Part shown: positions 4,416-9,278 of the stretch, one piece after another
Layout: each line of letters opens with the position of its first letter
How positions within the stretch are numbered: the first letter of the stretch is position 1
NCBI GenBank assembly: GCA_963676565.1
Contig: OY781089.1
Span: forward strand, 1,728,001-1,792,000
Reading direction: 5' to 3'
From: Halarcobacter sp.
Lineage (GTDB): Bacteria; Campylobacterota; Campylobacteria; Campylobacterales; Arcobacteraceae
Length of the DNA: 64,000 nucleotides
Translations under genes and position numbers: made by a program
The notes under the pieces: generated by a model
Told to the model about the DNA's origin: nothing
Seen by the model: only the letters and a program-made list of their open reading frames with translations
Database searches by the model: none

Positions 4416-4546
4416 AATATACTCCTTAACCCTTTTGAAATAATTATAACTTTTAAAGGTATCATAATAGTATTAGAATAGAAATAATTTTATAAAATAA
4501 TGAAAATTTAAAAAGATTGTAAAAAATAAGTTTTTATATAAGAGTC

Positions 4547-6222: not shown

Positions 6223-6990
6223 ATGGAACTTTTTGCTGATATTACTCCTTATTGGGTAATAGGTTTTGTTATTGCTGGTTTTTTAGCAGGGTACATAGAC
6301 TCAATAGCTGGTGGTGGTGGAATGGTTCAAGTTCCAGTATTGCTCCTAAGTGGTTTATCCCCTATTCATGTTTTAGCTTCAAATAAAATGGCTGGCTTAG
6401 TTGGTGTTTTAATGGCAACAATTAAATATGCACTTAGTAAAAAGATATCTTGGAAAGTTGTAAGTATTGCAATTATCCCTTGTCTTCTTGCTTCTTATAT
6501 TGGAAGTAGATTAATAATGTTTGTATCTGATGAGATAATTACTTGGGCTATCATTTTAGCTATTCCTGTTGCTATGGTTTTTTTATTTAAAAAAAGTAAA
6601 AAAATAGTAGAAGAAAAAACAAAACTAAATAATAAAAATATTATTCTCGCAACTGCTCCAATTGGATTTTATGATGGTTTATTAGGTCCTGGAACAGGAA
6701 CTTATATGACTATTTCTATGAAAAAGTTTTTACATCTTGATTATTTGATTTCAACAGCATCAACTAAGCCTTTAAATTTTGCTACAAATGTAGGTTCTGC
6801 TATTGCCTTTATTTTTGCGGGAAAAGTGTTATGGGGAGTTGCTATTGTTTTGGGATTAGCAAATATAGCTGGTTCATATGTTGGAAGTCATTATGCTATC
6901 AAAGGTGGAGAAGAGTTTATAAAAAAAGTACTTGTCTTTGTACTTGTTTTTATGTTAGTTGGAAATATTATAAAAATTGTTGTGAGTTAA
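6223..6990 (+). CDS. TSUP (TauE/SafE, YfcA-like) transporter
   Basis: IDSIAGGGG and GFYDGLLGPGTG motifs; hydrophobic throughout. Confidence 0.92.
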   Translation: MELFADITPYWVIGFVIAGFLAGYIDSIAGGGGMVQVPVLLLSGLSPIHVLASNKMAGLVGVLMATIKYALSKKISWKVVSIAIIPCLLASYIGSRLIMFVSDEIITWAIILAIPVAMVFLFKKSKKIVEEKTKLNNKNIILATAPIGFYDGLLGPGTGTYMTISMKKFLHLDYLISTASTKPLNFATNVGSAIAFIFAGKVLWGVAIVLGLANIAGSYVGSHYAIKGGEEFIKKVLVFVLVFMLVGNIIKIVVS

Positions 6991-7763
6991 TGAAAACAAA
7001 AGTTTTCAAAAATAAAAAATTAGATTTTTTGGAATTGAGATATATTGAAAATATTACTCAATGTGAAAAAATGCATTTGCATGAAGAACTTACAATTACA
7101 GCACTTAAAGAGGGCTCATTAAATATAAGTTTTAATGACTCTTCTAAAATATTAAACCCCAATGAAATAGCAATAATGAACTCAAATATAATCCATAATG
7201 CAACACTAAATAGTAAAAGTGTCAAAGATGGATATGTATTATATATAGATAAAAACTACTTAGAAAGTTTGAATTTAGGCATATCTTTAGATTATGTTTT
7301 TTTAAAAGATGGGAAAAATAGTTTTATAAATCTATGTGAAGTATTATTGGCTGAGGATGTCTCTTTATTGGAAAAAGAAGAGCTATTTATTGAGTTTTGT
7401 TTAAATACTTTTTCTTTAAAAGAAGAGATTGAAAAAGTAGAAAAAAATTCTTTATCTATAAAAATAAAAAACTATCTAGATGAAAACTTTTTGGAAGATA
7501 TTATTTTAGAAGATATCTCAAAAGAGTTTAATATAACTGTCGTACATCTAATAAGAGTTTTTAAAAAAGAGTTTGGCTTAGCTATTCATTCATATATAAT
7601 TAATAAAAAAGTTCATAGGGCAAAAGAACTTTTAAACTCAAAGTTACCAATTATAGAAGTTGCCTTACAAAGCGGTTTTTTTGACCAAAGCCATTTAAAT
7701 AGAAGTTTTAAACGAGTATTTCAACTAACCCCTAAAGAGTTTCAAAAAAATATACTTTCGTAA
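6990..7763 (+). CDS. AraC-family transcriptional regulator
   Basis: N-terminal cupin (HLHEE) and C-terminal double HTH (GFFDQSHLNRSFKR); true start is ATG 6990, overlapping the upstream stop (TAATG). Confidence 0.93.
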   Translation: MKTKVFKNKKLDFLELRYIENITQCEKMHLHEELTITALKEGSLNISFNDSSKILNPNEIAIMNSNIIHNATLNSKSVKDGYVLYIDKNYLESLNLGISLDYVFLKDGKNSFINLCEVLLAEDVSLLEKEELFIEFCLNTFSLKEEIEKVEKNSLSIKIKNYLDENFLEDIILEDISKEFNITVVHLIRVFKKEFGLAIHSYIINKKVHRAKELLNSKLPIIEVALQSGFFDQSHLNRSFKRVFQLTPKEFQKNILS

Positions 7764-7829
7764 ATGTTAATTTTGTACAAGATTTAAATTTTTTTATTTT
7801 ATATACTTATTTAAATAAAAGGAGAAACT

Positions 7830-7901
7830 ATGAATAGTATAAAACAATATAATCATATTCAAACAAATAATCTACTCTCAATCCTCTTACTCTCAAAATA
7901 A
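7830..7901 (+). CDS. Putative leucine leader peptide (MNSIKQYNHIQTNNLLSILLLSK)
   Basis: AAAAGGAGA RBS, ATG 7830, TAA 7899-7901; codons CTA CTC TCA ATC CTC TTA CTC; directly upstream of leuA. Confidence 0.8.
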   Translation: MNSIKQYNHIQTNNLLSILLLSK

Positions 7902-7970
7902 TTTTCAAACCAACCCTTATCAATTTTAGTCGCAAATATTTGCAAAATATATAAAATCATGGAGAATAAA

Positions 7971-9278
7971 ATGACATATAAAAAATATAGACAATATCCT
8001 ATTGTCAAAAATTTCGTACGAACTTGGCCAAATAATCAAATCACAAAAGCCCCTATTTATGGAAGTGTAGATTTAAGAGATGGAAACCAAGCTTTGGTAA
8101 ATCCTTTAAATATAGAACAAAAGTTGGAGTATTTTAATACTTTAGTAAAGATGGGATTTAAACAAATAGAAGTTTCTTATCCAAGTGCTAGTGATACGGA
8201 TTTTAACTTTACAAGAAAATTAATCGAAGAGAAGCTAATCCCTGATGATGTTGCTATTCAAGTATTAATTCCAGCAAAAAAAGAGTGGATAAAAAGAAGT
8301 GTTGAAGCTATGAGGGGAGTTAAAAATGGGATTTTCCATTTATACAATCCAACAAATGAGTTCCAAAGAAGAGTAGTATTTAAAAAAAGCGATGAAGAGA
8401 TAATCTCTATGGCAGTTGAGTCTATGAAATACTTAGTGGAACTTACAAAAGATTTTGAGGGCAATGTTATCTATGATTATTCCCCAGAGAGTTTTTCCCA
8501 AACCAATTTAGAATTTGCCGTAAAAATATGTAATAAAGTAATTGATGTAGTAAAACCAACTATACAAAATAAGATGATAATAAACTTACCAAATACTCTA
8601 GAAGCCTGTACTGCAAATATTTATGCAGATAGAATAGAGTGGATGTGCAATAATTTGAACAACAGAGAGTCACTTATAATAAGTGTTCATCCTCACAATG
8701 ACAGAGGAACATCAGTAGCCTCAGCAGAACTTGCAGTTTTAGCAGGAGCAAATAGAGTTGAAGGAACACTATTTGGAAATGGTGAAAGAGCAGGGAACTT
8801 AGATTTAGTAAATTTTGCTTTTAATTTACATTCACAAGGTATTGATTCTACACTTGATCTATCAATTGTGGATGAGGTAAAAAAGATGTATGAGAATTTA
8901 ACAAAGTTAAATATAAATCCAAGACATCCCTATGTGGGCGATATGATTTTCACAGCCTTTAGTGGTGGACATCAAGATGCCATAAAAAAAGGAATAGACT
9001 TTTACAGAAAAGAGAATTGCCAAGAATGGAATGTGCCTTATTTACCAATAGATCCAAAAGATATAAAAAGGGGATATGAAGATGTTATTAGAGTAAATTC
9101 ACAATCAGGAAAAGGGGGAGTTACTTTTATAATAAGTGATTTTTTTGGAGAAAATCTAACTAAAGAAGAGTCTATAAAATTTGGTATTTTAGTAAAAGAG
9201 CAAAGTGATAAACTACAAAGGGAATTGAGTAAAGAGGAGATTATAGAGTTATATAAATCTTTTAAAATAGAGTCCTAG
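7971..9278 (+). CDS. leuA: 2-isopropylmalate synthase (yeast/mycobacterial type) lacking the C-terminal regulatory domain
   Basis: VDLRDGNQAL, YSPESF, HPHNDRG, GNGERAGN, AFSGGHQDAI and RVNSQSGKGG motifs; 435 aa from ATG 7971 with GGAGA RBS. Confidence 0.88.
   Translation: MTYKKYRQYPIVKNFVRTWPNNQITKAPIYGSVDLRDGNQALVNPLNIEQKLEYFNTLVKMGFKQIEVSYPSASDTDFNFTRKLIEEKLIPDDVAIQVLIPAKKEWIKRSVEAMRGVKNGIFHLYNPTNEFQRRVVFKKSDEEIISMAVESMKYLVELTKDFEGNVIYDYSPESFSQTNLEFAVKICNKVIDVVKPTIQNKMIINLPNTLEACTANIYADRIEWMCNNLNNRESLIISVHPHNDRGTSVASAELAVLAGANRVEGTLFGNGERAGNLDLVNFAFNLHSQGIDSTLDLSIVDEVKKMYENLTKLNINPRHPYVGDMIFTAFSGGHQDAIKKGIDFYRKENCQEWNVPYLPIDPKDIKRGYEDVIRVNSQSGKGGVTFIISDFFGENLTKEESIKFGILVKEQSDKLQRELSKEEIIELYKSFKIES

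Follow-up and report, generated by a model that had tools for sequence, protein, structure and literature searches.

In Campylobacter jejuni, a 28-amino-acid open reading frame (ORF) with five rare Leu codons, LeuL, lies upstream of leuABCD, and short RNAs end just past its stop codon (Porcelli et al. 2013, PMC3847290). The authors proposed that transcription terminates when the ribosome does not stall on the leader and reads through when it does. LeuL orthologues were predicted in most Epsilonproteobacteria having leucine genes, three Arcobacter genomes being compared, and the paper gives no termination mechanism and does not mention Rho (PMC3847290). Translation of C. jejuni LeuL was shown by an initiation peak in ribosome profiling of translation initiation sites (PMC11955535). 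A leucine leader of the LeuL kind is already known in the phylum, and the claim of a first-pass annotation of the present DNA, that no such amino-acid attenuator is described in Campylobacterota, does not stand. The present analysis concerns a 64,000-nucleotide (nt) stretch of Halarcobacter sp. DNA (contig OY781089.1; hereafter the window, whose numbering is used below), in which a 23-codon LeuL-like leader ORF (7830..7901, forward strand) precedes the gene of a second, predicted 2-isopropylmalate synthase (7971..9278). The leader very probably senses leucine, and the effector may be Rho.

What other leaders are comparable? The enterobacterial leu operon attenuator (Leu_leader in Rfam) consists of a G+C-rich terminator with a U-tract plus an antiterminator. 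In the tnaC-tnaA operon of Escherichia coli, a stalled leader ribosome sits at the Rho loading site and prevents termination in the spacer, and there is no terminator hairpin. In Salmonella, ribosomes on the leader ORF orf34 of speF block Rho (Ben-Zvi et al. 2019, PMC6386406). The actinobacterial LEU element is a pseudoknot whose base stem pairs Leu codons with the Shine-Dalgarno (SD) sequence of leuA (Seliverstov et al. 2005, PMC1262725), and the same paper, citing Konan and Yanofsky 2000, proposed Rho for terminator-less Cys leaders by analogy with tna. In Mycobacterium tuberculosis, a genome-wide survey tied premature termination to translated upstream ORFs (uORFs) and Rho (bioRxiv 10.1101/2022.06.01.494293). 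Literature searches returned nothing relevant on bicyclomycin or termination in Campylobacter or on leader-peptide attenuation in Arcobacter, and a search on differential RNA sequencing or transcription start sites of Arcobacter returned only Porcelli et al. 2013 (PMC3847290).

The leader ORF starts with an ATG at 7830, and its SD sequence (7820..7825) has a GGAG core at 7821-7824, 5 nt ahead of the ATG. Five Leu codons (CTA, CTC, CTC, TTA, and CTC) lie in the seven-codon stretch 7872..7892, the presumed ribosome stall site. Three of the five are CTC. Across 2,127 ORFs of 200 or more amino acids in this genome, no Leu codon is used less than CTC, which makes up 614 of 84,630 (0.7%); TTA, CTT, and CTA account for 58%, 23%, and 11%, respectively. 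The TATACT hexamer, the SD sequence, the 23-codon uORF, and the five Leu in seven codons are all where the first-pass annotation had put them, and its remark that CTC is uncommon holds. Is such an ORF common in this genome? There are 102 SD-preceded small intergenic ORFs, only five of which have five Leu in eight codons, and two of these five precede the two isopropylmalate synthase genes of the genome. Two others were rejected as leaders, one (G000:C1:2940812) having G-rich surroundings and an adjoining open frame only on the opposite strand, the other (at 2069918) using the common TTA and TTG codons. As a separate observation, a 41-codon SD-preceded ORF occurs in four identical copies in non-coding DNA (G000:C1:461165, 467362, 2970265, and 3322705), which probably belong to a repeated unit such as an rRNA operon.

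Two sets of loci were examined for conservation of the leader. In the first, a protein search of 61 related genomes found the synthase paralog in 25, the window's own genome included (14 of 24 in the same genus), and the upstream regions were searched automatically for ORFs of 10-45 codons that start with ATG behind an SD sequence and end in a Leu-rich tail. Such a uORF was found at 19 of the 25 loci. The automatic search gave no candidate at L022, L025, and L029, and at L028, L030, and L031 it gave only ORFs without an SD sequence, which were not counted. The second set comprises 30 Arcobacteraceae-type loci (L032-L061) from named records of Halarcobacter, Arcobacter, Aliarcobacter, Marinarcus, and others. 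Here, 25 of the 30 have a leader, 22 starting with ATG, two with GTG (L040 and L042), and one degenerate (L048), and no leader was found at the other five (L043, L056, L058, L059, and L060). The two GTG leaders retain the SD sequence and a Phe/Leu tail, and the L048 leader has lost its first ATG and is shortened by a premature stop.

The two sets share species and were pooled into 35 unique leader-plus-spacer sequences, the pool omitting L040, L042, L043, L048, L058, L060, and all loci outside Campylobacterota. An SD sequence precedes the leader in all 35. The encoded peptides fall into about 14 families with little in common beyond the SD sequence, the length, and the Leu tail. In the window's own family (group a, 11 sequences), the last three Leu codons (7884-7892), both SD sequences, and the arms of a palindrome behind the leader are invariant, and the other codons vary freely; the palindrome center differs in L016 with its arms unchanged. 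Since relatives keep SD-preceded, Leu-tailed uORFs in unrelated peptide versions, the uORF is taken as a real leucine leader. The first-pass annotation had proposed this function, and the comparison across Arcobacteraceae bears it out. I am confident, on comparative grounds, that 7830-7901 is a leucine-sensing leader, on which the ribosome would initiate and stall.

Leaders of this sort were also seen farther away. Full-length type-2 leuA genes (about 550 amino acids) with short upstream Leu-run ORFs occur in Thalassobaculum-like and Magnetospirillum-like alphaproteobacteria and in a metagenome-assembled genome of Patescibacteria (L062-L087). Leucine leaders thus seem to accompany type-2 leuA genes widely. 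The canonical leuA of Hydrogenimonas-like and Nitratiruptor-like genomes (L108-L111, L121, and L129) is preceded by a different conserved leader family, which has a short terminal Leu run, lies just 40-79 nt from leuA, and shows no hairpin by eye.

The leader overlaps an unusual stretch of RNA. Positions 7838..7928 contain no G (39 A, 31 T, and 21 C; 23% C), exactly as first annotated, and form a C-enriched, unstructured tract of 91 nt, a candidate Rho utilization (rut) region, for which some 70-80 nt of C-rich, G-poor RNA without structure would be expected. It is the longest G-free run in the window, the runner-up being 71 nt. In the whole genome (3.34 Mb, both strands), 20 G-free runs, this one among them, are at least 91 nt long. 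Among 908 fully non-coding 140-nt upstream regions of the genome, the leader region ranks second by longest G-free run (median 26; 99th percentile 76), and three of the 908 reach its surplus of C relative to G (+18; 26 C vs. 8 G). The transcript from 7814 to 7990 (177 nt) folds worse than its shuffled versions (-7.4 kcal/mol, z +1.24), 182 of 200 shuffles folding at least as well; its ensemble energy is -12.5 kcal/mol. Apart from this tract, the longest C-free run of the window is an 82-nt run at 4464-4545.

Is the lack of G inherited or maintained? G-free runs reach 60 nt or more in 26 of the 35 unique leaders and 70 nt or more in 23, compared with 2.3% and 1.2% of background regions, respectively. 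These leaders include families whose spacers cannot be aligned with that of the window. In the Aliarcobacter family, a G-free run of 98-100 nt extends from codon 2-3 through to the SD sequence of the gene. By this comparison, avoidance of G is a conserved property, more than an inherited sequence. In 14 family representatives, the share of C, otherwise 8%, climbs to 34-38% within the 20 nt preceding the stop codon. G does not exceed 4% between -40 and +30, and the 20 non-coding nt next to the stop have none (0%). By position, the C-rich core thus falls on the presumed stall site, where a stalled ribosome could mask it.

The C enrichment is not confined to the Leu codons. In counts that leave out L024, L026, and L027 (other families), C occupies 121 of 320 third positions (38%) in the last ten codons and 34 of 401 (8%) in the earlier ones, the genomic value being 6.4%. 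Likewise, TTC accounts for 25 of 42 Phe codons in the last ten codons vs. 1 of 13 earlier. In 32 Arcobacteraceae leaders, CTC makes up 70 of 143 Leu codons against 0.7% genome-wide, and CTC and CTT stand at 70:27 in leaders vs. 614:19,315 in genes. The Leu tRNA anticodons found in the genome are TAA, TAG, GAG, and CAA only, and by standard wobble rules the GAG-anticodon tRNA should read both CTC and CTT. Since one tRNA should serve both codons, the preference for C would act on the letters of the RNA and not on decoding. Rho favors pyrimidine-C steps, and the preference is what would be expected for Rho, or for pairing with GGAG. The skew comparison that the first-pass annotation had called for thus shows the C-over-G, G-free, and unstructured character kept across unrelated leaders and centered on the Leu codons. 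As another observation on these spacers, 11 of 18 family representatives have the pentamer AATCA in the 40 nt that follow the leader stop, where shuffles give 2.8 on average and none of 1000 reaches 11. It often has a T-run ahead, and the corresponding part of the window (7902-7941) has only a related variant. AATCA could provide pyrimidine-C steps for Rho, or a pause.

How might the leader work? A rho gene is present in the genome (TIGR00767, 666 bits vs. a cut-off of 509). Transcription would start a few bases past the -10 hexamer (7802-7807), at a promoter on which the AraC-type regulator encoded just upstream probably acts as well. On the resulting messenger RNA (mRNA), the first reading frame would be the 23-codon ORF, with its strong initiation signal and its five Leu codons at the end. 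With ample leucyl-tRNA, the ribosome would complete the ORF and depart, and about 90 nt of G-less, C-rich, unstructured RNA would be exposed. Rho could then load on the exposed RNA and halt RNA polymerase, either in the spacer or within the first part of the synthase gene. With leucyl-tRNA in short supply, the ribosome would stall on the Leu codons, the C-richest core of the tract, and mask the Rho loading site; the polymerase would continue, and a synthase without a regulatory domain would be made. I regard Rho-dependent termination masked by a stalled ribosome as the leading candidate for the effector, at somewhat less than an even chance, both the loading of Rho and the direction of control being deduced from the layout. 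After Rho, the candidates in order of probability are stall-dependent stabilization of the mRNA, sequestration of the SD sequence of the gene, and a weak intrinsic terminator.

Several points weigh against Rho. Only 69 nt separate the leader stop from the synthase gene in the window (47-57 nt for the Aliarcobacter group), and the SD sequence of the gene is predicted to be fairly open (0.38 unpaired), so ribosomes starting on the gene could outrun Rho. Long G-free runs are not rare in this AT-rich genome, which has 197 of at least 70 nt on both strands. A part of the C-over-G skew stems from the Leu codons themselves. Nine of the 35 unique leaders lack a long G-free run, and five of eight such representatives carry a hairpin plus a U-tract, so the leader family can work without a G-free tract. 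The strong SD sequence of the leader would keep ribosomes on it in times of plenty too, unless initiation is shut off. Hexamers resembling a -10 element in the AT-rich spacer make a second start site possible. Finally, the genome encodes RNase J, and the effect of a stalled ribosome could instead be to shield the mRNA.

The last point leads to an alternative in which the leader senses leucine in the same way and the output is mRNA stability, the stalled ribosome blocking 5′-to-3′ decay by RNase J entering via the unstructured 5′ region. Stalled ribosomes of the ermC type stabilize the downstream message in Bacillus. Stabilization of this sort would account for the layout of the locus as well. 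In the present genome, RNase J was found (645.5 bits) and RNase E/G was not; the leader is unstructured, no terminator was found, and spacers of 47-69 nt suit a block of decay better than the kinetics of Rho. Pausing at Arg codons alters RNase sensitivity at speF orf34 (PMC6386406). However, a leader of A and U only would serve decay equally, and stabilization leaves the exclusion of G, the enrichment of C, and the choice of CTC and TTC over the T-ending synonyms unexplained. I consider it a serious rival, though unlikely, and Rho-dependent termination is preferred.

One structural prediction may bear on the objection from the strong leader SD sequence. In the folding models, this SD region (7817-7826) is largely closed, with an openness of 0.14, and its main partner is the Leu zone (7880-7890; mean share 0.65). 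The pairing is seen here and in most relatives; L023, L024, and L027 have a longer helix, formed by sequences that differ on either side. Such pairing would stop re-initiation after the first ribosome, and a stalled ribosome would reopen the SD sequence. This would help the Rho model, and it may just follow base composition.

Pairing of the Leu codons with the other SD sequence, that of the synthase gene, would amount to translational attenuation of the LEU-element type, the pyrimidine-rich Leu codons hiding the SD sequence until a stalled ribosome frees it. CTC and CTT runs are complementary to GGAG, and the gene is of the actinobacterial type, for which pairing of this sort was proposed (PMC1262725). 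Openness of the SD sequence was computed by partition-function folding with the Leu zone blocked or free in 32 leaders, three without an ATG at the aligned start being dropped. Blocking raised the mean unpaired probability from 0.40 to 0.56, with large effects in a few leaders (L016, L045, L046, and L061); the change in the window leader is small (0.38 to 0.45). However, the duplex between the Leu zone and the SD sequence has a mean energy of -5.6 kcal/mol vs. -6.0 for shuffled sequences in 15 representatives (-5.0 vs. -5.9 in the window), the entire leader is less stable than its shuffled versions, and the Leu zone in the models pairs mostly with the SD sequence of the leader itself. With such weak support from the blocked-zone folding and from the duplex energies against shuffles, SD sequestration was rejected as the main mechanism, and I hold it to be distinctly improbable.

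Is the leader a classical attenuator? Behind the G-free tract lies a 12-nt palindrome (7932..7943), which might be an intrinsic terminator opposed by an alternative pairing as antiterminator. The stem has no more than 4-5 bp, what follows it is rich in A instead of U, and a role of the palindrome as a pause site or a vestigial terminator is conjectural. No terminator-like site was found in a consensus scan of 7500-8300 or in a relaxed scan of the spacer, and neither the minimum-free-energy fold nor the centroid fold of the leader RNA contains competing antiterminator helices. An Rfam search of 7600-8100 at a permissive threshold gave only four chance-level matches (E 0.09-8.6), all far below the gathering scores. 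The palindrome and the lack of terminator, antiterminator, and U-tract were already described in the first-pass annotation, with which these scans and folds agree. The elemental pause consensus has a G at -10 and a pyrimidine-G at the pause; a match at 7932/7941-7942 was given no weight, as about 0.4 such matches are expected by chance per 40 nt.

What speaks for an intrinsic terminator comes largely from relatives. In the relaxed scan, a hairpin plus U-tract was found in none of ten representatives having a G-free run of at least 60 nt and in the five of eight without one already mentioned, although this split into two designs is partly built in, G-C stems needing G. For L051, the terminator scan gave an 8-bp hairpin with three GC pairs and a U-rich tail. 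In L009, L021, and L051, the hairpin plus U-tract starts at +37 after the stop codon, a place matching that of the window palindrome (+31). By eye, a long hairpin and then a U-run seem to be present in two Sulfurovum-like leaders of canonical leuA (L127 and L140), and the short C. jejuni leader RNAs ending past the stop codon point the same way (PMC3847290). On the other side, leaders of the Aliarcobacter type have no hairpin at all, and neither visual inspection nor folding of L051 and the L009 group gave a convincing classical antiterminator. Together with the short stem and the negative scans, this leaves the intrinsic terminator slightly less probable again than SD sequestration, and Rho remains the preferred effector at the window leader.

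The promoter and the neighboring genes were also compared. An AraC-family transcription regulator gene (6990..7763, forward strand, probable start 6990; matches to Pfam HTH_18 and HTH_AraC and to NCBIfam AraC-type models) ends immediately before a conserved 18-nt box (7764..7781), which directly follows its stop codon. The box is kept, near-invariant, in all Arcobacteraceae loci with or without a leader, and is probably a regulator site or an upstream promoter element. The -10-like hexamer TATACT (7802..7807), the probable promoter element of a transcript comprising leader and gene, is invariant in 11 of 11 group-a sequences, as is the SD sequence of the synthase gene (7961..7965, before the ATG at 7971). 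The conserved C-terminal coding sequence in the upstream flanks indicates that an AraC-family gene precedes the synthase locus in relatives too. The synthase gene is monocistronic; the next genes lie on the opposite strand. Some loci (L022, L025/L056, L043, L058, L059, and L060) keep the AraC-type gene, the box, the -10 hexamer, and the synthase gene without a leader, and in such leader-less relatives the box and the hexamer sit about 25-30 nt ahead of the SD sequence of the gene. This arrangement speaks for transcription of the gene from the promoter ahead of the leader, and for leader and gene sharing one transcript. The synthase match of L025 is in two pieces (residues 1-340 and 340-432), suggesting a frameshift or an assembly error.

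The gene can therefore do without the leader, as these seven relatives show. Might the uORF then be non-regulatory, either an ORF that arose by chance in AT-rich DNA or one for a small protein with a separate function, the gene being under the AraC-type regulator only? The SD sequence, the start, and the Leu tail are kept over about 14 divergent families with an extreme bias for rare codons, the same design stands before canonical leuA, and the peptide sequence itself is poorly conserved. A non-regulatory uORF is thus very improbable.

Which synthase is controlled? The first-pass annotation had called the downstream gene leuA. It is instead, by its domain content, a type-2 (yeast/Mycobacterium-like) paralog paired with an AraC-type regulator, and the housekeeping leuA lies elsewhere. 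The 435-amino-acid product matches the 2-isopropylmalate synthase subfamily model NF002991 with 650.7 bits (cut-off 455) over profile positions 2-431 of 550, and the equivalog TIGR00970 with 572.9, under its cut-off of 697.4. Pfam matches are HMGL-like and IPMS_D2, without LeuA_dimer, a domain that occurs once in the genome, in the 517-amino-acid leuA product (G000:C1:1298136). The closest solved structure is M. tuberculosis LeuA (1SR9), of whose 644 residues only 59-466 are aligned. The part of 1SR9 beyond the aligned region is presumably the C-terminal leucine-binding regulatory domain, and since the alignment ends before it, the paralog is, by sequence comparison, one that lacks this domain. 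The gene is not beside leuBCD. A literature search on isopropylmalate synthases without the regulatory domain returned nothing on bacterial paralogs of this sort. Such a synthase behind Leu codons would give a starvation-induced, feedback-insensitive entry to the leucine branch, and the AraC-type regulator would add a second input.

The housekeeping leuA has its own 25-codon leader (G000:C1:1297963-1298040), with four consecutive Leu codons (CTG, CTG, CTT, and CTT) and a final CTC, downstream of a sigma-70-like promoter. This leader is conserved across Arcobacteraceae. Between it and leuA lie a T-run/A-run palindrome and, directly behind the palindrome, an extended -10-like box about 27 nt before the start codon. 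Conserved throughout Arcobacteraceae (L090-L119), this box might serve as a second promoter or as an operator.

Taken together, the locus might be a hairpin-free attenuator in which the control codons are themselves the Rho loading site, sensor and effector site in one, where selection for C (CTC over CTT, TTC over TTT, and a lack of G over about 90 nt) would have built a rut at the very place of the stall, sister lineages having swapped to or from a hairpin plus U-tract at the same position, and in which a feedback-insensitive synthase is held in reserve for leucine starvation. I put this whole picture forward as a conjecture, possible and on balance not probable. AT-rich genomes of Campylobacterota have few classical terminators, and before this one gene there is a natural series of G-free hairpin-less leaders, leaders with a small palindrome, leaders with a hairpin plus U-tract, and loci with no leader. 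The series makes the terminating agent, whether Rho, a hairpin, or decay, directly testable. A second synthase without a leucine-binding domain under the control of Leu codons is a plausible escape from feedback inhibition in starvation. If Rho is not involved, the locus is an ordinary additional leader of the LeuL type.

How does the window leader compare with the known systems? The enterobacterial leu attenuator needs a terminator and an antiterminator, neither of which was found at the window leader, and there is no match to the Rfam family. With tnaC-tnaA, the proposed mechanism shares the leader-peptide ribosome at the Rho loading site and the lack of a hairpin, the Rho dependence being a proposal here. 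However, tna is catabolic and senses free tryptophan by nascent-peptide arrest at the stop codon, whereas the window leader would use hungry Leu codons ahead of a biosynthetic-type gene, and the tna spacer is about 220 nt compared with 69 nt.

At speF orf34, translation of a short uORF likewise hinders Rho-dependent termination, and pausing at consecutive (Arg) codons alters the outcome; in contrast, speF uses a long structured leader RNA, RNase G, and SD sequestration, whereas the window RNA is unstructured with no such layers evident (PMC6386406). The LEU element and the Cys leaders resemble the window leader in that ORFs with runs of Leu or Cys codons precede type-2 leuA or cys genes without an obvious terminator (PMC1262725). 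A stem between Leu codons and the SD sequence, as in the LEU element, is unsupported at the window beyond base composition, and a pseudoknot was not searched for. The M. tuberculosis survey concerns another phylum and is genome-wide in scale (bioRxiv 10.1101/2022.06.01.494293).

LeuL, in the same phylum, shares with the window leader an ORF of 20-35 amino acids, an SD sequence, a C-terminal Leu cluster, rare codons (CUA, CUC, and CUG), and an isopropylmalate synthase gene downstream (PMC3847290). LeuL precedes the housekeeping leuABCD, whereas the window leader precedes a monocistronic type-2 paralog without a regulatory domain, beside an AraC-type regulator.

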